Counted from the first letter of the stretch, positions 266 to 31,772 are shown. The stretch is 64,000 nucleotides of DNA from Bdellovibrionota bacterium (GCA_041739995.1 JBGSMV010000080.1:42845-106844), one strand, 5' to 3'. Notes: generated from the letters alone by a model not told the origin. Translations and numbers: made by a program.

Positions 266-1189
266 ATGGGGTGCTGCACCCGCGTAATCGCCCGCTTGGA
301 CATTAAAGGTCCAAATGTAATTAAGGGACTCCAGTTCGAGGGGCACCGCGTTTTGGGCACTGCGGATGCATTAGCAACTGCATACTACCGAGCCGGGATC
401 GACGAGATAATTTATCAGGACACTGTCGCCAGCCTCTATCAACGCTCCAACATTGCGGAACTCATCAAGCGCGCTGCTACCGGTATCTTTGTCCCCATAG
501 CGGTTGGAGGCGGGCTACGAAGCATAGAAGATATGCGAAACGTACTTCGCGCCGGGGCGGATAAAGTTATCTTGAATACCGGTGCAGTAAAATCTCCGTC
601 GCTAATAGACGCAGGTGCCCGCGAGTTCGGATCTCAGTGCATTGTTTGCTCAATCGAAACCGCTCGAATCAATGGTGAATATAAGGTTTGGGTTGACTAT
701 GGACGTGAGGTCTCCTCTCTAGACCCCGTCAGCTGGGCTCAAGAAGTAGTGAATCGTGGCGCTGGCGAGATTATCATCAACTCACTTATGCATGACGGCA
801 TGGGTGAAGGGTTCGATTTGGATATAATCAGCCAAATTGCAGAAAAAGTCTCGGTGCCGGTGGTAGCCTCGGGTGGTGCTGGCAAGAGGGAGCACTGTCT
901 CGACGTGCTGCGCTCAACCTCCGCGAATGCCGTAGTAGTAGGCTCGATGTTTCACTACCACTATCTGCAAAACTCCACTCAGGCATTACCACAGCAACCT
1001 TCTCACCTACTCGGCGGAGAAATCGATCAGGGAAACTTCGATTTTATAAAAGATGGTTATGGAGGTGATCGCGCCATTATGGTGCAGCCAACCTCGGTGC
1101 AAGAGGTCAAAACGTTCTTGAGTGAAAATGGGATTGTCGTTCGCACCGCAATTTCGTCACCTCTGCCTGACCATAGGGTGTCAGAATGA
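266..1189 (+). CDS. hisF: HisF-like cyclase paralog (WbuZ/AglZ type, ammonia channel for glycan amidotransferase)
   Basis: RVIARLDIKG, VGGGLRS, AGADKV, GAGEI, ASGGAG motifs; adjacent to hisH paralog and amidotransferase, not in a his operon. Confidence 0.9.
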   Translation: MGCCTRVIARLDIKGPNVIKGLQFEGHRVLGTADALATAYYRAGIDEIIYQDTVASLYQRSNIAELIKRAATGIFVPIAVGGGLRSIEDMRNVLRAGADKVILNTGAVKSPSLIDAGAREFGSQCIVCSIETARINGEYKVWVDYGREVSSLDPVSWAQEVVNRGAGEIIINSLMHDGMGEGFDLDIISQIAEKVSVPVVASGGAGKREHCLDVLRSTSANAVVVGSMFHYHYLQNSTQALPQQPSHLLGGEIDQGNFDFIKDGYGGDRAIMVQPTSVQEVKTFLSENGIVVRTAISSPLPDHRVSE

Positions 1190-1863
1190 AAACTCAATCA
1201 ATTGTAGTGATTGACTATGGTGTAGGAAACCTCTTCAACGTTGAGTCCGCTTGCAAAGCGCTCGATCTTGATTTTCTCACCACCACCGATCCTCAGGTAG
1301 TTAGTAATGCTGCTCGCATCCTATTGCCTGGAGTCGGCGCTTTTAGACCAGCGATGCAACGCCTCCATGACGGTGGACTGATAGAACCACTGCGTAACTT
1401 CGTTACATCTGGACGGCCACTTCTCGGTATATGCCTTGGCATGCAGTTACTTTTCTCTACCTCTGAGGAGCACGGCTCCTGGAACGGCCTTAATTTTATT
1501 CCTGGAAAGGTCGTACGTCTCCACGAGGGTGCAGCCGCTTCCAATTCACAGGTCAAAATCCCCCATATTGGGTGGAATATGGTCAACCGTAGCCCCGATC
1601 ACCCCTCTCAATCAGTTCTCGATGGTCTACCTGCTCCAATATCGGTGTACTTTAACCACTCTTTCATGGCGGTACCGGTCGACCCAAATGTCGTGCTCGG
1701 ACATTGTTCGTATGGCGAGAACTCTGTCGCATCTGTGATTCGACATAACAACATTCATGGATGCCAGTTTCATCCAGAACGAAGCGCGGATGCGGGACTA
1801 CGAATTTTGTATAATTTTGCTCACCTAGATGGTCTAGGATCAACCCACACGGGAGGATATTAA
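1186..1863 (+). CDS. hisH: HisH-like glutamine amidotransferase (WbuY type)
   Basis: IDYGVGN, LPGVGAF, GICLGMQ (catalytic Cys), QFHPE (His-Glu); ATGA overlap with upstream gene. Confidence 0.93.
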   Translation: MKTQSIVVIDYGVGNLFNVESACKALDLDFLTTTDPQVVSNAARILLPGVGAFRPAMQRLHDGGLIEPLRNFVTSGRPLLGICLGMQLLFSTSEEHGSWNGLNFIPGKVVRLHEGAAASNSQVKIPHIGWNMVNRSPDHPSQSVLDGLPAPISVYFNHSFMAVPVDPNVVLGHCSYGENSVASVIRHNNIHGCQFHPERSADAGLRILYNFAHLDGLGSTHTGGY

Positions 1864-13255: not shown

Positions 13256-14236
13256 CTAGGAGAAATGGGGGTGCCCCTGCCTCGCTTTTGCCTCGTAGGC
13301 TTGAGACATTTCGTCAAGAACGTTCAATGTTTTCTTACTCAATCCCTTCGCAAGCGCTTCTCGTCGATCGGTACGGCCCGAGGAAGGCTCTTTGCCCGGT
13401 AATTTTTCCCTCTTCTTAATCATCTCCATCGAAGGGAGGACAGGCTGCTGTAAGAACTTGGCCAAACGATCAACCTCAGCATCAGGAGAAACAACCAAAT
13501 CTTCGTATCGCAATTGAAAGACTTTCTCCTTCTCTGATGCCGCAAGCCGGGTCCATCGATCTTCCGAACGCTGAGCAATGGTGGCGATCGACCGAACAAC
13601 TCGCTCCTCGGCCGAAACATCTGCATAGTCCTCAGCCCAATCTAAGGCGAACCAAGGCACCAACCCCTTCCCCTTTTTGAACGGAATGACGAAGCCCTTA
13701 GGGTCCGTTCCCCAGCGCCCACCCCAACCACGCTGCAACCAAGAAAAACAAAGATCCAAGGGGTGCCGATCTAAACGCACGACTCGAAGCTCCGGAAGGA
13801 AAGAGAAGAACAGATCGATGAAGGGGAGAACTTCGTGCATCACATAGGGGAGATAAGGAGGGTCCGATTGAAGCTTTGCCATGACCTCGGTGTCGTCCGA
13901 GCTTAAGCAGCGCTGGAGGTAGTCAGCAAAACGAGGCGACTGAACAACCGAAGATTTGTCCGATAGTCTGAAGTTCAGACCTCGACCAACCATTAAATCA
14001 TACGCGGTGTTGTCGAACTGAACTTGCAACAGAGAAGTCGCCGTTTCCCTTGAAATTTTTCCGAACGACTCAAGGAACGGGACATGCTCAAAAATACTGT
14101 GGTATTGAAAGTGCTCAACATTCGAGATACCTGACAGCACGTTGGACACGAGAAACTTTCCGGAGCGAGTAACTCCTTCTACGAATAATATGCGCTCCAC
14201 CAACCGAGCGCGATCTCCTAGCGGATAAGATTTCAT
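13256..14236 (-). CDS. Sulfotransferase family protein
   Basis: 5'-PSB-like GVTRSGK, 3'-PB-like RHPLDLCFSW, LRYEDLV. Confidence 0.78.
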   Translation of the reverse strand: MKSYPLGDRARLVERILFVEGVTRSGKFLVSNVLSGISNVEHFQYHSIFEHVPFLESFGKISRETATSLLQVQFDNTAYDLMVGRGLNFRLSDKSSVVQSPRFADYLQRCLSSDDTEVMAKLQSDPPYLPYVMHEVLPFIDLFFSFLPELRVVRLDRHPLDLCFSWLQRGWGGRWGTDPKGFVIPFKKGKGLVPWFALDWAEDYADVSAEERVVRSIATIAQRSEDRWTRLAASEKEKVFQLRYEDLVVSPDAEVDRLAKFLQQPVLPSMEMIKKREKLPGKEPSSGRTDRREALAKGLSKKTLNVLDEMSQAYEAKARQGHPHFS

Positions 14237-14245
14237 AGATTCTAA

Positions 14246-16513
14246 CTATTCAGTAAAGACTTTGCGGCCAATAGCTATTTCGGAAAGCAAATAATTGGAA
14301 ATTTCAGGCCTCACCAACCATTCAGGCGGTCGCTCTCCTTTCAAGAGACTGGAACGCAGCTCGGTGCCACTAAGCGCCATAAACGATTCCTCGGCAGAGG
14401 TTCGTTCGCCATAAGCACCTTTCGCTGCCAAATACCCCACTTCGTCAAAAAATATTGGCTTAATGTCAAGATCAGGAAACTCTTCGAATATGCGCCGTGC
14501 TGCGTCCTTTGCGTAGAACGACCCCACTCCCGCATGGTCCCTTCCCACAATGAAGTGAGAACACCCAAAATTCTGCCGACAGAGCGCCGTGAATACTGCC
14601 TCTCTTGGTCCTGCAAATCGCGAATATGAAGCAAAAGTGGAGAATAAGACCTTGTTCTCTGGGTAGTGCGCCCGCAAAAGAATCGAGTACGCACGAATAA
14701 TTGCCTCTGCTTCAAAGTCGCCCGCCTTTCGTTGGCCCACCACTGGATGGATAAATAGGCCATCACACTCCCCACGTATCATCGCCTCGTGATGAAGATA
14801 CTCATGGGAGCGATGAGGTACGTTGCGCGAATGAAATCCTACTACTCGAGTCCAACCGCGACTCTCGAAAATCTTGCGGACTTGAAGCGGTGTAAGTTCG
14901 AAATTCTTTTGCTTCGCAGGAGGTCTACTAAAAAGTGATACTCTGCCGGCCACCGAAAAGCTTCCCCCGCCGAGTATTCGAGCAACCCCCGGGTGTTTAG
15001 AATCAACGGTGCCAAACCAATCACGACAGAGGTCCTCTACCTTAAGTGGGAAGACCTCTGAAACATGCAACAGCCCAAACGGGACTTGATCTCCCTCCGA
15101 TACCAACTTAATCACTGGGGCGCTGCCAAAACTCCGTGCCCGCGCTTCCTCTACCTGAAGAAGGATCGGCATCGGCCAAATCTTCCCACCCGGAAGACGC
15201 TTATTTGCCAGAACCGAAGCGAGCTCTTCGGGCCCCATGAACCCTTGAAGTGGACTATAGGTGCCGATAGCGAGCTGCTCAGCGTCCATCGCTTGCTCGA
15301 TACGAAGCTCCAACGCCGGAAGTGACGCCAAATAATCCTGGGGAGGAGGTCTCTGTAAAAGTCTATCGACGAGCTGTCCTCCGTGTGGACGAATAAGGCT
15401 GGCACCTACCGTGGGGCTAGTTAAAAATTTCGAGCGCTCGAGAACTTGTATCAGTTCTTGAGTGCCTCCTCTCATTTCATCAGTCGAACCAAGGAAGAAC
15501 AGAGTCTGCTTCCCTACGGTTTGAATTAAATTGATAGCCTCAATCGGGTGCTTCCCGACCGCTGTCTCAGCTGCCAAGACCAAGCCATCTGCGCCGTCGA
15601 CAAGCGTATTAACGATATCATTGATCTCGGCCCGACTGGGCTTGAGACTGGCCATCATAGTGTCTAAGAAATTGGTGGCAACAAATACGGGTATGCGCTT
15701 ACCGTTTGCTCGATGGATGATAATCTTTTGCGCAAACGCTACCCTTTCAAGAGGGACTTCTCGGCTAAGATCTCCTCGATCAATCAGGATGCCATCGGAG
15801 CAATCAAGTATTGAATCTAGGTTCTCTACCGCTCGCTTGGTCTCAATTTTACTGATTACAGTTGCCTCAGGGTAGAGCTCTCGCACTTCCTGAACGTCTT
15901 CACGAGAGTTGACAAAGGAAAGGTTGAGAAGCGTAATTCCGTGTCTACGAGAAATTTCTATCGCTGCTCTATCCTTCTCACTCAGCGCCGGCAGTTGAAA
16001 CTGCTGGTTCTCTACAGAGACCGCTTTATTGTTACCAACGTCTCCTCCCGTAATTACAGTGCACTCCACGTAACCAGCACCACTCAGGTCCGTGAGGCTG
16101 TCGACTCGTAGAATAGCAGTGTCAAAGTCAACGAATATAAGGTCACCAACTCTCAGACTTGCGACCGCTTCCGCCGGCCTCAGAAACAACTGACTTGAGC
16201 TGCACTTGACGGCCTTACGGTATAGGCGCAGCGAATCTCCAGTGCGAAGAGCTACCTTGGCGACCCCTAGGTCCCCGGTACGAATCTGGCACCCTTCGGT
16301 GTCAACAATGATAGGTGTAGAGATCTCGTTTCTTATCGCGCGGATCGTTGTTTCGAGATCTTCGATCTTGGTATGTGACAAATTGATACGCACATAATCC
16401 ACATCCCTAGCCGCGATTTTGCGAAGCATTTCCGCTGAAGACGTAGAGGGTCCCAAAGTGACGATGAGCTGCATTGCTCCGCCCTTCTCGCTCCGAACCG
16501 GTAACTTCGCCAT
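14246..16513 (-). CDS. sat: Pyruvate-kinase-like domain fused to sulfate adenylyltransferase (ATP sulfurylase)
   Basis: N-half: VTLGPS, RINLSH, SKIE, DRGDL, PSRAE, AETAVG; C-half: PHGGQL, SPLQGFM, HSRNVPHRSHE, GPREA, HFIVGRDHAG; AAGGAG RBS before ATG 16513 (alternative start 16474). Confidence 0.92.
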   Translation of the reverse strand: MAKLPVRSEKGGAMQLIVTLGPSTSSAEMLRKIAARDVDYVRINLSHTKIEDLETTIRAIRNEISTPIIVDTEGCQIRTGDLGVAKVALRTGDSLRLYRKAVKCSSSQLFLRPAEAVASLRVGDLIFVDFDTAILRVDSLTDLSGAGYVECTVITGGDVGNNKAVSVENQQFQLPALSEKDRAAIEISRRHGITLLNLSFVNSREDVQEVRELYPEATVISKIETKRAVENLDSILDCSDGILIDRGDLSREVPLERVAFAQKIIIHRANGKRIPVFVATNFLDTMMASLKPSRAEINDIVNTLVDGADGLVLAAETAVGKHPIEAINLIQTVGKQTLFFLGSTDEMRGGTQELIQVLERSKFLTSPTVGASLIRPHGGQLVDRLLQRPPPQDYLASLPALELRIEQAMDAEQLAIGTYSPLQGFMGPEELASVLANKRLPGGKIWPMPILLQVEEARARSFGSAPVIKLVSEGDQVPFGLLHVSEVFPLKVEDLCRDWFGTVDSKHPGVARILGGGSFSVAGRVSLFSRPPAKQKNFELTPLQVRKIFESRGWTRVVGFHSRNVPHRSHEYLHHEAMIRGECDGLFIHPVVGQRKAGDFEAEAIIRAYSILLRAHYPENKVLFSTFASYSRFAGPREAVFTALCRQNFGCSHFIVGRDHAGVGSFYAKDAARRIFEEFPDLDIKPIFFDEVGYLAAKGAYGERTSAEESFMALSGTELRSSLLKGERPPEWLVRPEISNYLLSEIAIGRKVFTE

Positions 16514-16609
16514 ATCTCTCCTTCTCTCGCCTACCGCATGGAAACATGCCACGCCCGAACAAGAGAGCGCCTTAACATGATGCCTCAATGAAAGTGTGTT
16601 TGAAAGTGG

Positions 16610-17887
16610 CTATGGAGCAGGTGTTAGTGTCAGCAAGGGCTCCCGCTGACGAGCGACTCCAAGCCAAAGCGCGGCAAGCACCGAAGTAACCACAGCGCTC
16701 AGAATCAAAGTGCAGGCGAACTCAGATGAAATAGCCCCTGCGGCAAGCGCCGTGGTCGCAAGCACAATCCCGGGCCCCCCACGTGCATTCATGCACACTC
16801 CGAAAGTAATGGCAGTAGAGGTACTCAACCCGTTAAAACGGGCACTCACAAATGCACCAATTATCTTTAGGGCGCTGGTCGCAAAGAGGAACAGAACAAA
16901 CTGTGACAGTATGAAGTTCTCGCCAAGATGAAGGTTGAGCCCAACAAGAAAGAAGTAGACTGGCGCAAAATAAGCCATCACTATTTCTCGAAAGTGCTCG
17001 TGGGCCCGTTGCACACTTGCTTGGTCACAGGCTCGCGCTCCGATGCCGCCAAAAAATGCTCCGATGGATGGGTCAATACCTCCAAGGCGGGCGGCGGCTG
17101 CACACACCAGGCAAGCGATAATCAGAATGCTTAGAGGCGCAGGCTCAGGGGCATCTTGTTGAGTTGCCGATGAAATAGCACGATGAATACGGGAGCGCAG
17201 TTTGAGCACTTGGGCCAACAGCCTGGGCACCAAAAAAGGAAAGAGAAATACGAACACCAAGAAGGGCGCTCGAAATAGCATATCCATCCAGGTTGTCTCT
17301 GCTGCACCTGCTTGAATGGAGAAAGCCACGGCCAGCACTGCCTAAAGTAGGAGATCCTCTAACGTCGCGGTCGCAAGCACAATTCGTGCAAACCGCGTCT
17401 GAAGGATTCCAAGATCCATAAAGATTCTGGTGATGACAGGGATTGATGTCACGGAGGCGGCTATAGCAATCATCAATAGCAACGAGACAGGGTCGCACTT
17501 CACTCCGCATAGAGTCTGATAATCAAGCGCGGGGACGATGAGCAATGCGGCCATAAAGGGAAGCACCGCGCTTCCGATCGCGAGTCCAAAGATCGTCTTA
17601 CCCTCCTTTCCAATCGATTTTCGACCTATTTCAAATCCGGCAACAAACATCAAAAGCACTGTACCGAGAGCACTCAGCAGAATAAAAACTGGGTTGGACT
17701 GAGCATTCTCCCCCCACAATATGCGGTGAGCTCCTGGAATCAATCGACCTAAGATATCTGTCCCAAGCAAAACGCCGGCGAAGATCTCACCAACCACTCT
17801 TGGAATGCGCACCAGCTGGCACAACTGCCCAAGCCCTAACGCCACCGCAATCGCCACAGCCAGGGTGATGAACACGTCACCTACCAT
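16610..17887 (-). pseudogene. CPA2/Kef-type cation:proton antiporter interrupted by one in-frame TAG (17342-17344)
   Basis: PRVVGEIFAGVLLG, LLMFVAGFE, TSIPVITRI, EDLLL*AVLAV, GAFFGG, PVYFFLVG, MNARG all in one frame. Confidence 0.8.
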
Positions 17888-18884
17888 CCGCCCCCCTGAG
17901 TGAAGACAGAATAACTTTTTCTCCGCTCTCACTTGCTTGCCTGCACGCAGCGATAAGGCGCAGTGTTTGAACTCCTTCGGCAAACGTGACCAGCGGATTC
18001 TCAGCGCCCTGAGCGCATTGAAGAAAGTGTCTCATTTCTTCTAGATACATCTGATTTTTATCAAGTAACGCGGGCGAATAGACTTGTTTTGTTGCTCCGT
18101 TAGCGAGCACCGTTACTATGTGCGAGATCCCATCCCACACAAGCGTCCCTTCCGACCCCACCACTCGACAGACTCGCGTTGGGTGACGCTGAATCATATC
18201 AAGGTGGACTTGCACTCGCAGGCCACTTCCAAACTCGGCAATCAAGTTGACACAGTCCTCTACATCAATATCGAAGGTGCCTGATTTCCACGCGATCCCT
18301 TGAACCGCATGGACGTCTCCGAATAACCATTGAATATAGTCAAGCTCGTGACTGAGCTCCAGTAGTGCCCCTCCCCCAAGCTTGGCTATGGCACTTGCTG
18401 ATTTTGTATAGTCCTTACCGGGCCTCCAATCGGGAAGATATTGGCCAACTTCGGCCGAAGCGCAGACAAGCTTTCCAACAATGCCCTGCTCAAGAGATCG
18501 CTTGAATGCTCGCAATGAACTTGAGAATCGAAGGTGATACCCAACTAAGCAGATAGCCTCGCAACGCTCCAGGATTTTCGAAACTTCTGATATCCCTTCA
18601 TCGGAATGCGAAAGCGGTTTCTCCACTAAGGTGTGAATGCCGGCAGACAGTAATTCCTTTAAATAGGCAAGATGGGTACTGGAAGGCGAAGCGATGATTG
18701 CGCCATGCAAGGGGGCGGTCAGCGCTTCAGCGATTGAGCTAACTGACTGGTCAGCAAACTCGATACTACCAACACTTCGCACCGAGGGCAGTACAAGTAT
18801 ATGAGCCGCTGGAACCAAGGCCCTAAGATTATTCGCGTGACGTCGCGCGATGTTTCCGGCGCCCACTATCAGAAACCGAGACAA
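17877..18884 (-). CDS. Gfo/Idh/MocA oxidoreductase (PtmF/ElaA-like)
   Basis: IVGAGNIARRH, LVEKPL, VGYHLRF, GQYLPDWRP, GGGALLELSHELD. Confidence 0.9.
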   Translation of the reverse strand: MSRFLIVGAGNIARRHANNLRALVPAAHILVLPSVRSVGSIEFADQSVSSIAEALTAPLHGAIIASPSSTHLAYLKELLSAGIHTLVEKPLSHSDEGISEVSKILERCEAICLVGYHLRFSSSLRAFKRSLEQGIVGKLVCASAEVGQYLPDWRPGKDYTKSASAIAKLGGGALLELSHELDYIQWLFGDVHAVQGIAWKSGTFDIDVEDCVNLIAEFGSGLRVQVHLDMIQRHPTRVCRVVGSEGTLVWDGISHIVTVLANGATKQVYSPALLDKNQMYLEEMRHFLQCAQGAENPLVTFAEGVQTLRLIAACRQASESGEKVILSSLRGADGR

Positions 18885-18902: not shown

Positions 18903-19814
18903 TCATGAGTTAAACGACATCGCACAGTGCATCTGCGGCTCTTGGGCTGTGACCACAGCCCCGCGAGCGAGCATTGAGTAGAACTCCCTTATGGTTTCCT
19001 CGATCGAACAAAAGAAGTGGTTCTTCTTTGGTGAACGAACTGCCGTGACACAAAGCTCCCAGTCCCCGCCACGACCATAATGTTGATACAGGTAAGATGT
19101 CATGAACAACCCGTACTTGTTTAGCCAGGAAGCCATTGCGATATGGTCCCACACCGACATGTCATCGGCTCCAAATGCGCCTAGCGAATGCGGTCGACTG
19201 CCGTAGCGCCATGCGGGGACAGCCACTATCAGCGAGCCAGAGCTCTTTAATGATCGACCTGCGAACGAGAAGAAATCATTTGGGTCATAAATATGCTCAA
19301 TCGCGTGGTTGGCGAAAATGAGATCATACTGAACATCTCGCGGCAAATCTTCAACCGTCGGCACAATGCGCGTATGAAAATGTTCGTTTCCAAACGCAGC
19401 TCGACTTCGATCGATTTCGACGCCCCAGAGCGAGTTATGCTGGTTGGCAAGAAATTCAAATGAGCCTCCGATTCCGCATCCGAAATCCAGACAAGTTCCA
19501 TTCGTGATGAGACGCGGATCATGCGCATTCATGACCAACCAGGGGAGGAATCGAATAAGTTGATGCGGCGCAAAGTCGATGTAGCCCGGTGAAATCGAAG
19601 CACCCGAGTTCGCTGCAGAATCTGCGTATGCGCTCTCGAGCTCCGCTCTAGTTGGTCGAGGGCTTTGAAATACATATCCGCAAGATCCGCATAGCTTCCA
19701 TGAAGGGCTATTAGAAATGGCCTTTCCCGCTTCTGAATGAGACCCCGAGGGAAGTTGAAGTCCTATGAGAGAAGCTGAGGCACAGCACGGGCACTCTTGC
19801 AGAGTCAGCGTCAT
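18903..19814 (-). CDS. Class I SAM-dependent methyltransferase with N-terminal Zn-ribbon
   Basis: CPCC...CGSCG, LDFGCGIG, GVEID, HAIEHIYDP. Confidence 0.85.
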   Translation of the reverse strand: MTLTLQECPCCASASLIGLQLPSGSHSEAGKAISNSPSWKLCGSCGYVFQSPRPTRAELESAYADSAANSGASISPGYIDFAPHQLIRFLPWLVMNAHDPRLITNGTCLDFGCGIGGSFEFLANQHNSLWGVEIDRSRAAFGNEHFHTRIVPTVEDLPRDVQYDLIFANHAIEHIYDPNDFFSFAGRSLKSSGSLIVAVPAWRYGSRPHSLGAFGADDMSVWDHIAMASWLNKYGLFMTSYLYQHYGRGGDWELCVTAVRSPKKNHFFCSIEETIREFYSMLARGAVVTAQEPQMHCAMSFNS

Positions 19815-20264
19815 AAAGTCCCTAGAAAATGTTCCGTTCAGAATAAGGCTAAGCTACTAAGATGAGGAAAAACGAGCAACAGATTCAACCGGTTGAGAGT
19901 ACATGCGCGGCCTAGAGGAACCTCACGACGCACCCTAGAGCCACCTGCCCACTCAAAGCTATCCTGGCAATCGACGGCGCGCTTAAAGGTTCTGAGTGGA
20001 ACTACAGTTTTTACCCTTCCTATTCACTAGACGAACGCTCAGGTCCCGACGGCGCAATACGCAAAGCGCACTCGATGAGCCTGAGAAGTGTGGAGCGCAT
20101 CGAAAGGCACTTTGGTCAGCAGTAGCATTCCCGTAGGATTGCCCTCTCCAATAGCATCGAGGCCCTACACCCGGAGAACTCTATGTTACAAGGTGAGTAA
20201 GGCGACTACCCCCTATGAAGTTGACCCCTCAAATGAACTTCGTTTTTTGGGACAAGCGAGAGTT

Positions 20265-21389
20265 ATGAATATTCCTACTGGCCTTACCGCGATTCCTTTC
20301 GGTTCGAAGCTCATTTCTGAAGCAACCCCAACCTTCATTATTGCCGAGATAGGCGTAAACCATAACGGAGATGTTGATCTTGCCCATAGGATGATCGACG
20401 AAGCGGCGGCTACTGGAGTTGATGCCGTCAAGTTTCAAACTTTCCGTGCTGAGACACTAGTGTCTCGTGATGCCGCAATGGCTGAGTATCAGAAGAAGAA
20501 TCTAGGGCACACGGGTACCCAGTTCGAGATGTTGAAAGGACTTGAGCTGCCGCTTGAATCGTATAGCGCGCTCAAGGAGCACGCTGAACGACTAGGGGTA
20601 GTCTTTCTTTCAACTCCATTCGACAAGGGCACTGCTGATTTTTTGAATACACTGGGTGTAGTTGCATTTAAAATCGGCTCCTCGGATACGGACAACATCC
20701 CTCTACTTAGGCACATTGCTCGGTTCCATAAGCCCATGATTTTATCATCTGGCATGTCCGACATCGAGGAGCTTAGCGCAGCAGTTTCGGAGGTTTTAGC
20801 GTTGAATCAAGCTGTCGTCACACTTCAATGCACCACTGATTATCCTTGCGCTGCTAAGTATGCGCATCTCTCAGCACTTTCAACGATTCGAGATCGCTGC
20901 AGAACTTTGGTTGGATTTTCCGACCATACTGAGGGCCTCTCTGCTGGGATTGCCGCGGTGGCTCTCGGAGCGGTGGTGATCGAGAAACATTTCACCACCG
21001 ATCGTTCATTGCCTGGGCCAGATCAAGTCGCCTCAAGCGAACCAGCAGAGTTCTCAGCGCTCGTTCAGGGCATCCGCAAGCTAGAAATCGAGGCTCCTAA
21101 GAGACGCCTCGCGCGAGTGAAGGCCTTTCCCGAGTTCGCCGAGTTGCTCGGAGATTCGAGCAAACAAATTGCAAAGAACGTTATTTCTTCGGGCGTTATG
21201 AAAGTTGCGAAGAAAAGTATCGTCGCTGCCTGCCGTATTAGTGTGGGAACTGCTCTCACAGAAGAAATGTTGTGTGTAAAAAGACCGAGCGGTGGCGTCC
21301 GACCGCTTGACTTCAGTCGTCTTCTCGGACGCTGCACCAATCGAGTTATTCAAGTCGACGAGCCCTTGAACTGGGAGGATCTTGTGTAA
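20265..21389 (+). CDS. neuB: Nonulosonic acid synthase (NeuB/LegI) with C-terminal SAF domain
   Basis: IAEIGVNHNG, DAVKFQTF, STPFD, KIGS, CTTDYP, GFSDHT, IEKHFT, GPD, KRPSGG. Confidence 0.95.
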   Translation: MNIPTGLTAIPFGSKLISEATPTFIIAEIGVNHNGDVDLAHRMIDEAAATGVDAVKFQTFRAETLVSRDAAMAEYQKKNLGHTGTQFEMLKGLELPLESYSALKEHAERLGVVFLSTPFDKGTADFLNTLGVVAFKIGSSDTDNIPLLRHIARFHKPMILSSGMSDIEELSAAVSEVLALNQAVVTLQCTTDYPCAAKYAHLSALSTIRDRCRTLVGFSDHTEGLSAGIAAVALGAVVIEKHFTTDRSLPGPDQVASSEPAEFSALVQGIRKLEIEAPKRRLARVKAFPEFAELLGDSSKQIAKNVISSGVMKVAKKSIVAACRISVGTALTEEMLCVKRPSGGVRPLDFSRLLGRCTNRVIQVDEPLNWEDLV

Positions 21390-29364: not shown

Positions 29365-30273
29365 TCAGACTGCCACCGGGTGCCAGGTCGTCTTTATCTC
29401 AAGCATGCTTTCGAGCTCAGTAAGGGAGTCTGCCTGAGCCGACTGGGCAACTACCCGCTTAAGATTCTCACCGCCAAGAGCTCGTACCAAGGCAATATCA
29501 TCCCTCTCTTCGCGGGGAAGACAAACCGCACCGATATCCATGTGAGAACCAAGTGGAGTTAATAGCTCATCTTTGAGACCAGAGAGCAGATTAACCACTC
29601 CCGCAGGAACATCTGAGGAAGCGAGCACTTCAGCGAAGCTAAGTCCCACGGTAGCGCTGCGCTCAGAGAGCAGCACTATCACTGCGTTTCCCGCGCACAC
29701 TGCCGGTGCAAGTGCACGTACAAGCCCAAGAAGTGCGGATGATTCAGGGGCTACGACCCCCACCACTCCAATCGGTTCAGCGCAAGAGAAGTTGAAGAAA
29801 TTTCCCGCTACAGGATTGATGCTCCCAAGCACTTGCTGGAACTTGTCGGCCCATCCTGCATAGTGGACAATACAATCAATCGCCGCACCTGTCTCAGCAA
29901 TCGCCTGCTTCTTCGTCGCCCCGAGCAAGATTAACTCTTTCTCGAACTGGTCTCGACGGCTCTCAAGCATCTCAGCCATTCGATAAATTATCTGCGCTCG
30001 ATTGTAGGCCGTGCGGCTCTTCCACACAGCGAACCCTTTATGCGCAGCAACCACCGCGTTCCGAATATCCTTACGGGTTCCTCTACACACATGCGCGACT
30101 AATTTCTGCTTAGATCCGACAACTGGGTACTCGCGTTCTGATTCGGAGCGCACGAATGCCCCGCCAATGTACATCTTGTAAGTCTTTAGGACCGGGACAC
30201 GCCCGTTCGCTTCAGCCATAGAGGACTTGTGCTGCACCTTCCCGTTACTCGAAGTATCGCGCTTTGTGCTCAT
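29365..30273 (-). CDS. Short aldehyde dehydrogenase-like subunit (NAD-binding fold only)
   Basis: KTYKMYIGGAFVRSES, YAGWADK, GVVNLLSG, IKTTWHP; lacks the ELGGK and catalytic Cys segment. Confidence 0.85.
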   Translation of the reverse strand: MSTKRDTSSNGKVQHKSSMAEANGRVPVLKTYKMYIGGAFVRSESEREYPVVGSKQKLVAHVCRGTRKDIRNAVVAAHKGFAVWKSRTAYNRAQIIYRMAEMLESRRDQFEKELILLGATKKQAIAETGAAIDCIVHYAGWADKFQQVLGSINPVAGNFFNFSCAEPIGVVGVVAPESSALLGLVRALAPAVCAGNAVIVLLSERSATVGLSFAEVLASSDVPAGVVNLLSGLKDELLTPLGSHMDIGAVCLPREERDDIALVRALGGENLKRVVAQSAQADSLTELESMLEIKTTWHPVAV

Positions 30274-31772
30274 GAACTTGCTCCAATCGACAGGTAAGGC
30301 AACAGCCCGTGCAGTCCGCCCTCTCTACCAAACCCGCTCTCCTTTACTCCTCCAAACGGAGAAGAAGGGTCAAACTTATTGTAGGTGTTAGCCCACATCA
30401 CACCCGCATCAATCTGAGAGGTAACCTTAAAAATCTTCGAGCCCTTGTCGGTCCAAACGCCGCCAGAAAGTCCGTAGCGGGTGTTGTTTGCTTTCTCAAT
30501 TCCTTCTTCCGGAGTGCGAAAGGTTTGAACCGTCAATACGGGTCCAAAAATCTCTTCCTGCACAATTCGAAAGGATTGTGAGACCTCGGTGAAAACTGCA
30601 GGCGCGCACCAATATCCTTTACCTGGCAGGACAGCGGAGCTCTGAAAAAGTTCTGCGCCTTCGCTTTTTCCAATCTGAAGATACTCTTGGATTCGTTCCA
30701 GCTGAGATTTCGAATTAATGGCCCCTATGTCCGTGTTTTTGTCGAGCGGATCACCCACTCGCAGCGTGGCGATACGGTCTTTAAGTTTTCGAATTACTTG
30801 TTTGGCAACTGATTCCTGAACCAGCAAACGGGAACCCGCACAGCAAACGTGTCCTTGGTTAAAGAAAATGCCGTTCACAATTCCTTCAACCGCCTGGTCG
30901 ATGGCCGCATCCTCAAATATTAGATGCGCAGCTTTGCCACCCAGCTCAAGCGTTATCTTGGCCGAACGCTGCGCATTCGCGGCCAAAATCAACTTCCCGA
31001 CTTCGGTTGACCCGGTAAACGCAATTTTATCTACGCCCTTAGCTTTCACCAAAGACGCTCCAGTATCACCGCCACCAGTTATAATATTCACCACTCCGGG
31101 CGGCAGATCAGCTTCTTGAATAATTTGGGCCAGCAGTAAAGCGGTGAGAGGTGTGGTCTCCGCGGGCTTTAGTACTACCGTGTTACCCGTAGCGAGAGCG
31201 GGCGCGATTTTCCAAGCAGCCATCAACAGCGGAAAGTTCCAAGGAATAATTTGAGCAGCCACTCCAAGCGGCTTGGCGTCTCTTCCCTTTAGCGCGTAGC
31301 GCAACTTGTCAGCCCAGCCTGCATAGTAGAAAAAATGTGCGGCGCTTAGTGGAATATCAACACTTTTTGATTCGCGTATCGGCTTGCCGCCGTTCATGGA
31401 TTCGACAATCGATAATGTGCGCGCCTGTTCTTGAATGAGTCTGGCAATACGAAACAGGTACTTGCCACGTTCGAGGCCCGATAACTTTGACCAGTACTTA
31501 GTATGTGCGCGTCGCGCGGTGTCGACTGCATGAGCGACATCTTTCTCGCCCGCATCCGGAACGCGCGAAAGAAGTTGCTCATTGGCAGGATTGATGACTT
31601 GCCGATACTTGCGCGAGATGGGTTTTGTAAATTTTCCACCAATAAACAGATCGTAGGATTTTTCTATTGAAACATGCTCATGCGCTTCAGGTGCGGGCGC
31701 ATACTCGAAAGGCAAGTCTTTCCCGGTACGAAAGTCCAAGGGAGCTGGTGAAGTCATGGGGGTCTGCCGCAT
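30270..31772 (-). CDS. Aldehyde dehydrogenase
   Basis: IPWNFPL, KPAETT, FTGSTEVG, LELGGK, FNQGHVCCAG, EEIFGPV. Confidence 0.95.
   Translation of the reverse strand: MRQTPMTSPAPLDFRTGKDLPFEYAPAPEAHEHVSIEKSYDLFIGGKFTKPISRKYRQVINPANEQLLSRVPDAGEKDVAHAVDTARRAHTKYWSKLSGLERGKYLFRIARLIQEQARTLSIVESMNGGKPIRESKSVDIPLSAAHFFYYAGWADKLRYALKGRDAKPLGVAAQIIPWNFPLLMAAWKIAPALATGNTVVLKPAETTPLTALLLAQIIQEADLPPGVVNIITGGGDTGASLVKAKGVDKIAFTGSTEVGKLILAANAQRSAKITLELGGKAAHLIFEDAAIDQAVEGIVNGIFFNQGHVCCAGSRLLVQESVAKQVIRKLKDRIATLRVGDPLDKNTDIGAINSKSQLERIQEYLQIGKSEGAELFQSSAVLPGKGYWCAPAVFTEVSQSFRIVQEEIFGPVLTVQTFRTPEEGIEKANNTRYGLSGGVWTDKGSKIFKVTSQIDAGVMWANTYNKFDPSSPFGGVKESGFGREGGLHGLLPYLSIGASS

Follow-up and report, generated by a model that had tools for sequence, protein, structure and literature searches.

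A Fusion of Pyruvate Kinase and ATP Sulfurylase in a Nonulosonic Acid Cluster of a Bdellovibrionota Bacterium and Its Proposed Role in Sulfate Activation

The Fusion Gene and Its Domains

A stretch of 64,000 nucleotides from a Bdellovibrionota bacterium (GCA_041739995.1, JBGSMV010000080.1:42845-106844; in the following called the window, with positions counted from its first letter) carries a gene on the minus strand in which a short pyruvate kinase (PK) is joined to an ATP sulfurylase of the Sat type. The open frame spans 14246..16588 and is not interrupted across the fusion. The ATG at 16513, which has an AGGAGA Shine-Dalgarno sequence ahead of it, yields a protein of 755 residues, and a second possible start is the ATG at 16474 (Met14). 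The gene is laid out as follows.

14246..16513, minus strand: PK-Sat fusion gene, 755 amino acids (open frame, Shine-Dalgarno sequence, Pfam, AlphaFold2)
15533..16471, minus strand: PK barrel and lid (B) domain of a "mini-PK" type without C domain, residues 15-327 (PF00224)
15395..15532, minus strand: helical linker between PK and Sat, residues 328-373 (helices of the AlphaFold2 model)
14927..15394, minus strand: PUA_2 domain of ATP sulfurylase, residues 374-529 (PF14306, 7.3e-36 in Pfam)
14285..14905, minus strand: ATP sulfurylase catalytic domain, residues 537-743 (PF01747, 2.5e-71 in Pfam)

A first-pass annotation made from the DNA alone had described a single reading frame with a PK barrel and B domain, in which a complete Sat beginning at LIRPHGG near base 15400 takes the place of the PK C domain. 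The open frame, the Pfam domains, and their boundaries bear out this description. The PF00224 match on residues 15-327 (2.7e-68) runs from position 5 to 328 of the 328 positions of the profile and thus includes barrel and lid, and the Sat part contains both the PUA_2 and the catalytic domain. A PK_C domain was not matched by Pfam in the fusion protein, Sat occupying that position, and neither was an APS (adenosine 5'-phosphosulfate) kinase domain (PF01583). As every NCBIfam match stays below its curated cut-off, no curated family fits the whole protein: the pyruvate kinase equivalog TIGR01064 yields 280.4 bits with a cut-off of 306.4, and the Sat families TIGR00339 and NF003166 yield 298.3 and 362.5 with cut-offs of 322.95 and 387, respectively. 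Every match to a solved structure is confined to one of the two parts, PK or Sat. Escherichia coli PykF matches residues 15-354, the alignment stopping at residue 347-352 of the 470 in the PykF chain, and the best matches of the Sat part, 8a8d (1.4e-84) and 1v47 (1.2e-83), cover residues 374-740 approximately.

An AlphaFold2 model calculated with a 30-row alignment had a mean predicted local distance difference test score (pLDDT) of 88.1 and a predicted template modelling score of 0.85. In this model residues 1-11 are disordered, an insert rich in beta structure (about residues 77-167) corresponds to the lid domain, and the linker contains two helices (residues 323-342 and 351-360) with lower pLDDT at residues 344-347 between them. 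Complex prediction of the PK half with the Sat half gave scattered scores of 0.72, 0.26, and 0.32, the control being 0.41.

Reality and Distribution of the Fusion

The source of the sequence is a metagenome-assembled genome of low coverage (depth 2-8), which raises the question of an assembly chimera or a frameshift artefact. The misassembly at the junction that the first-pass annotation had named as a danger to its proposal did not come to light. Contigs from four public runs, all belonging to one study and possibly including the source sample, bridge the junction at about 15397-15526 without differences: X1 with positions 15099-15512 (in part), X3 with 15386-15648, X4 with 15244-15531, and X2 as two overlapping pieces. 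The four runs are hot-spring and biofilm metagenomes, and their contigs cover the fusion gene at an identity of at least 99%. Independent support comes from a search for the domain architecture among the best 120 protein clusters, which stem from several sources and are 43-54% identical to the fusion. All 120 combine PK, PUA_2, and ATP sulfurylase. Nine of them are 904-943 residues long and have an additional C-terminal kinase domain, PF01583 being recognised in 8 of the 120. A scan of a species collection with one genome per species returned at least 599 pattern matches, and relatives are encoded in at least 581 stretches of this collection. The carriers include bacteria of the Candidate Phyla Radiation (CPR), DPANN archaea, Planctomycetota (Lacipirellula limnantheis I41), Mesorhizobium amorphae, Chloroflexota, Gemmatimonadota, and others. 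Cultured strains are among them, namely Lacipirellula limnantheis I41 and Mesorhizobium amorphae. Given this recurrence and the spanned junction, an artefact is hardly conceivable.

A full-text literature search found no paper on a PK-Sat fusion. The earlier statement that no enzyme of this architecture had been characterised agrees with this and with the search of solved structures, although the architecture is common in sequence databases. The fusion is a genuine variant of the machinery for synthesis of 3'-phosphoadenosine 5'-phosphosulfate (PAPS), widespread and so far unstudied by experiment. The copy in the window is an ordinary member of the PK-Sat family, located in a nonulosonic acid glycan cluster of a hot-spring organism.

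The Pyruvate Kinase Module

Upon alignment with PykF the fusion retains R42, N44, S46, D71, T72, R78, K163, K222, E224, D248, T280, and E316, residues which we take to serve the binding of phosphoenolpyruvate (PEP), metal binding, and phosphoryl transfer. The catalytic and ligand residues of the motifs RxNxSH, Asp-Thr, SKIE, RGDL, ATx, and ET are each kept in 111-120 of the 120 family members. This conservation bears on the suggestion that the PK module is not catalytic at all and acts as a sensor of PEP or energy status, or as an oligomerisation scaffold, which gates Sat. Such a role could be read from the replacement of the C domain, which canonical PK needs for tetramer contacts and allostery, and from the absence of the catalytic lysine in one of the 120 members. 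A sensor would not need all of the catalytic residues, however, which are invariant or nearly so (119-120 of 120), and the module also occurs in stand-alone forms on long contigs, so that a non-catalytic role appears improbable.

Six positions deviate from canonical PK in nearly all 120 fused members. The resulting signature reads DTEG(S/A)Q(I/V)R for DTKGPEIR, DRGDLS for ARGDLG, ATN for ATQ, and LAAET for LSGET. These changes, which in DTKGPEIR are glutamate for lysine and glutamine for glutamate, lie beside the PK active site. With the genome's own PK of 498 amino acids, a normal enzyme encoded on another contig, the PK part shares 30% identity. A search for shorter proteins found at least 120 sequences of 270-410 residues consisting of a PK barrel only, many of them on long contigs, and these share the signature (DRGDLS in 118 of 120, ATN in 113 of 120). 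Two canonical PKs formed the whole outgroup of a tree from a quick search, in which 96 sequences, both fused and stand-alone, split from them with 98% support in the Shimodaira-Hasegawa-like approximate likelihood ratio test; the stand-alone sequences formed two large groups, and a divergent sequence from the genome G013 sat on a very long branch. Judged by its sequence, the PK module belongs to a distinct "mini-PK" clade which occurs both fused and alone.

A metagenome scan seeded with stand-alone mini-PKs yielded 80 loci, about 30 of them with a mini-PK fused to Sat (29 by open reading frame, 31 by motif) and about 50 with a stand-alone form. In about 15 of these roughly 50 stand-alone loci an APS kinase directly adjoins the mini-PK, without Sat and often with a sulfotransferase. 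Pfam confirmed the pair of mini-PK and APS kinase in the loci L101, L131, L132, L135, and L146. As these mini-PKs adjoin APS kinase where Sat is missing, the module is tied to the ADP-producing step of PAPS synthesis.

Two loci with stand-alone forms have features of their own. In L101 (7145-9539) a gene of the PEP mutase/isocitrate lyase family is directly followed by a stand-alone mini-PK and an APS kinase, the whole being preceded by an AMP-binding enzyme and a GNAT protein; this represents another PEP-using setting for a mini-PK. In a relative of the same order (L168; G013:C3:1687-3686) a separate Sat of the glutamine type precedes a very divergent gene of 342 amino acids consisting of the PK barrel only (motifs MLDLPGNKVR, IDRGDLS, and LATQFL; very long branch in the tree), a split counterpart of the fusion in reversed order.

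The ATP Sulfurylase Module

Structure alignments and the columns of the 120 members show that the HxxH, HPxxG, GPREA, and GRDH motifs of Sat are all kept. HRSH at residues 567-570 (HxxH) and GRDHAG at residues 657-662, as aligned to 8a8d, 1v47, and 1j70, are invariant in the family. The sulfate- and APS-binding motif QxRN departs from the known pattern: HSRN is found at residues 561-564, with arginine and asparagine kept. The histidine in place of glutamine is a property of the fused copies, in which it was found in 119 of 120, 75 of 75, and 26 of 26 sequences of three sets. Unfused Sats beside stand-alone mini-PKs keep the glutamine (L152, L098, and G013).

Neighbours across the Family

Neighbourhoods were counted with local hidden Markov models in 80 genome loci that contain a relative of the fusion, and Pfam neighbour scans were made of 18 and 13 of the 36 loci with full flanks. 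This carried out the neighbourhood analysis for sulfotransferase and cysC which the first-pass annotation had suggested. Sulfotransferases proved to be the commonest neighbours. They were detected in at least 35 of the 80 loci, a lower bound as the local model is insensitive; the Pfam scans bore out what the local models had assigned and added L057, L076, and L079. APS kinase is encoded in 38 of the 80 loci, as a fused domain in 12, as an overlapping or abutting gene in 11, and as a nearby gene in 15. In 37 of the 42 carriers without an adjacent kinase it is found elsewhere in the genome, so that 75 of the 80 carrier genomes have an APS kinase. A CysQ-like phosphatase occurs in 6 of the 80 loci. 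Further neighbours in the loci scanned with Pfam were glycosyltransferases, methyltransferases, flippases, and sugar-nucleotide enzymes.

No APS kinase (PF01583) was found in 5 of the 80 carrier genomes, four of them CPR or DPANN assemblies of 0.8-1.2 Mb and one of 4.5 Mb, genomes whose completeness is not established. The four small assemblies (loci L022, L029, L033, and L013 in genomes G033, G034, G035, and G031) include three with a sulfotransferase beside the fusion and no kinase within 5 kb. In L013 an AAA_33/KTI12 P-loop kinase lies directly downstream of the fusion.

The Locus in the Window

The fusion gene belongs to a run of genes on the minus strand. The run and its divergent neighbour comprise the following features.

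13256..14236, minus strand: sulfotransferase, 326 amino acids, starting 9 bases past the stop codon of the fusion
16610..17983, minus strand: CPA2-type cation/proton antiporter gene, upstream of the fusion (Na_H_Exchanger in two pieces, TIGR00932)
17877..18884, minus strand: Gfo/Idh/MocA oxidoreductase, upstream of the fusion; L020 and L022 also have a similar gene close to the fusion
18903..19814, minus strand: S-adenosylmethionine-dependent methyltransferase, first gene of the same-strand run
20088..21389, plus strand: NeuB-type nonulosonic acid synthase, divergent from the run (PF03102, 8.6e-82)

The sulfotransferase gives weak Pfam matches (Sulfotransfer_3 with 6.9e-9, Sulfotransfer_1 with 1.8e-6) and contains TRSGKF and RHPLDLCFS, presumably the 5'-phosphosulfate loop and the motif for the 3'-phosphate of PAPS. 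A DegT aminotransferase, a CBS-nucleotidyltransferase, and a CTP_transf_3 cytidylyltransferase are also found nearby and confirm, together with NeuB, the nonulosonic acid cluster which had been recognised at first sight. Elsewhere the genome encodes a bifunctional CysN/CysC (853 bits).

The fusion is the only Sat-type sulfurylase of the genome, which could point to a function in assimilatory or dissimilatory sulfur metabolism instead of glycan sulfation. CysN/CysC is available for assimilation, however, and the gene is part of a glycan cluster, its translation coupled to that of a sulfotransferase, with relatives flanked by glycosyltransferases, sulfotransferases, and CysQ. None of 30 relatives ranging from the same genus to the same order carries the fusion; these have ordinary PKs only, and three of them have separate Sats. 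This absence makes the cassette look acquired and is expected of an accessory island. A place in general sulfur metabolism is therefore very improbable.

On the same contig, 22 kb upstream, lies an APS-kinase-like gene that was considered as the missing kinase and set aside: it is of the PRK05541 type, scores below the apsK cut-off, and adjoins a PRK05849 protein. The interval G000:C60:33792-37226 (L002), which lies some 5.5-9 kb ahead of the window, contains four genes close together: one for a PRK05849-type protein, an APS-kinase-like one of the PRK05541 type, and those for a methyltransferase and a nucleotidyltransferase. By sequence these look like the donor set for O-methyl-phosphoramidate of Campylobacter, the kinase being of the Cj1415 type. 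One glycan island may thus carry both phosphoramidate and sulfate decorations.

Some further observations concern the surroundings of the fusion. The antiporter gene is broken by a single in-frame TAG at 17342-17344, where homologues have a conserved tryptophan (..DI.LW..LA..); it may reflect a nonsense mutation, variation between strains, or an error in sequencing. A CPA2/Na_H_Exchanger gene stands directly beside the fusion in 6 of the 80 genome loci from five lineages (L072, L075, L076, L079, L080, and L084) and in the window, and a TauE/SafE permease adjoins the stand-alone mini-PK and APS kinase in L131, L135, and L146. Both may be transporters of sulfate or counter-ions that belong to the cassette. 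At the start of the glycan cluster (window positions 266-1863) lies a HisF-like and HisH-like pair, which is also found near sulfation genes in L027, L039, and L135 and may be part of an acetamidino-sugar pathway travelling with the cassette. An open reading frame of 302 amino acids at 29365-30273 on the minus strand aligns to the aldehyde dehydrogenase profile over its first half only and is immediately adjoined by a complete aldehyde dehydrogenase of 500 amino acids (30270-31772, minus strand); it may be a truncated duplicate.

A Proposed Role in PAPS Supply

Architecture, residue conservation, genomic associations, and distribution of the fusion are established. From these we infer the activities of the enzyme, its role in the recycling of ADP, and the identity of the sulfated sugar. 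The reading we hold to be probable, with considerable room for doubt, is that the fusion is a module for PAPS supply in which PK uses PEP to recycle the ADP released by APS kinase to ATP, in the service of glycan sulfation. The Sat half would form APS and pyrophosphate (PPi) from ATP and sulfate. APS kinase (here the CysC domain of CysN/CysC; many relatives have it fused or adjacent) would convert APS to PAPS and release ADP, and the PK half of the short clade would form ATP and pyruvate from ADP and PEP. The net reaction would then be sulfate + ATP + PEP -> PAPS + PPi + pyruvate. The sulfotransferase encoded 9 bases downstream would move the sulfate onto a surface sugar made by the nonulosonic acid cluster.

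Published work describes an extremely small equilibrium constant for Sat and its inhibition by APS, the trapping of APS kinase as a dead-end complex of enzyme, ADP, and APS, and a binding of ADP to Sat which is almost like that of APS (PMC3734648). PK would act on each of these points: it would pull the uphill pathway of sulfate activation forward, keep APS kinase out of the dead-end complex, and clear ADP, the look-alike of APS, from Sat. PAPS synthesis all but fails in vitro without a PK/PEP system to remove the ADP (PMC9885120). In view of the ADP dead end and of this need for PK and PEP in vitro, a built-in PK appears to be a sensible natural device (PMC3734648, PMC9885120).

The first-pass annotation had offered two ideas on the function of the fusion. 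One of them, the regeneration of ATP from PEP for sulfate activation, remains the best-supported reading, with the amendment that the ADP would have to come from APS kinase, since Sat makes PPi. The other, that PK acts on APS and so gives a route bypassing PAPS, found no support: APS kinase is encoded in the 38 loci and in 37 of the 42 other genomes mentioned above, CysN/CysC is present here, and the adjoining sulfotransferase has the presumed motif for the 3'-phosphate of PAPS. Such a bypass is unlikely.

Several points weigh against a role of the fusion in ADP recycling. The clade-wide changes beside the PK active site and the shortfall in the TIGR01064 score point to a possibly altered acceptor or cation need. 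The locus itself encodes no APS kinase, and the closest candidate, the APS-kinase-like gene of the Cj1415 type, is 22 kb away. As Sat yields PPi and not ADP, the fusion of PK to Sat instead of to the kinase is accounted for only indirectly and not fully explained. The exchange of glutamine for histidine in the putative sulfate site of Sat is unexplained as well, and 5 of the 80 carrier genomes show no APS kinase.

From the same observations one might conclude that the PK-like module has changed its acceptor or donor, to 3'-phosphoadenosine 5'-phosphate, AMP-containing compounds, or APS, and performs a chemistry beyond ATP recycling. The substitutions flanking the active site are conserved clade-wide in fused and stand-alone forms alike, the C domain is lost and the score falls below the pyruvate kinase equivalog cut-off, the fused Sats have a conserved histidine in the sulfate pocket, and four tiny genomes with the fusion show no APS kinase. 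On the other hand, the residues for PEP, metal, and transfer are all kept, and APS kinase, whose product ADP is the ordinary substrate of PK, is the most faithful partner of the fusion and present in 75 of the 80 carrier genomes. The changed positions correspond to 114 and 117 of the rabbit enzyme, which are known to vary with the requirement for a monovalent cation, and we have counted this against a changed acceptor. Taken together a changed acceptor or donor seems rather unlikely. The four CPR and DPANN carriers in which no APS kinase was found hint at a more special variant, in which mini-PK and the histidine type of Sat would constitute a PEP-driven sulfate activation, either with PK phosphorylating an adenylyl compound other than ADP or with the pair supplying a donor that can be used without a canonical APS kinase; to this we assign a low probability.

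Comparison with Known Systems

The fusion shares features with several known systems. PAPS synthase (Sat-CysC of Aquifex aeolicus, PDB 2gks; human PAPSS1) is likewise a single polypeptide of Sat and a helper which pulls sulfate activation. The Sat of 2gks has the same fold and motifs (alignment 3.7e-60), and the 9 of 120 relatives of the fusion mentioned above have APS kinase as a third domain. In the fusion of the window, by contrast, the helper is an N-terminal PK, an APS kinase domain is missing, and histidine replaces the glutamine of QxRN. The stand-alone homo-oligomeric Sats of Methanothermococcus thermolithotrophicus (8a8d) and Thermus thermophilus (1v47) share the PUA_2 and catalytic domains, HxxH, and the GRDHAG loop, but have no PK module and keep glutamine in QTRN. 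Canonical PK (E. coli PykF, 1pky, 4yng) shares barrel and lid and the aligned catalytic arginine, lysine, glutamate, aspartate, and threonine, whereas the fusion is without the C-terminal domain for allostery and tetramer formation and has DTEGxQIR, DRGDLS, ATN, and LAAET.

As a cassette, the locus resembles rhizobial NodPQ-NodH, in which a dedicated set for sulfate activation adjoins the sulfotransferase that acts on a surface or secreted glycan. NodPQ is of the GTP-driven CysDN/CysC type, while the fusion would be driven by PEP. The known solutions to uphill sulfate activation are GTP hydrolysis by CysDN, a pyrophosphatase, and fusion to APS kinase. Engineered PAPS cascades follow the same logic as proposed here, PK removing ADP and restoring ATP so that APS kinase keeps running; these are in vitro mixtures of separate commercial enzymes, whereas here a single natural gene is found (PMC9885120).

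Significance of the Family

A natural fusion of PK to Sat would, if the proposed role holds true, represent a fourth solution to the problem of sulfate activation, namely the direct use of glycolytic PEP. As a compact biocatalyst it could further serve to supply PAPS, whose availability limits the enzymatic production of sulfated sugars, among them heparin-like compounds. A lead in its own right is the clade of stand-alone mini-PKs, as we know of no study of pyruvate kinases that are devoid of the C domain. The PK-Sat family is frequent in CPR bacteria with tiny genomes, DPANN archaea, planctomycetes, and numerous lineages of soil and marine habitats, and by this spread it indicates an extensive and so far unexplored potential of microbes to make sulfated surface glycans.

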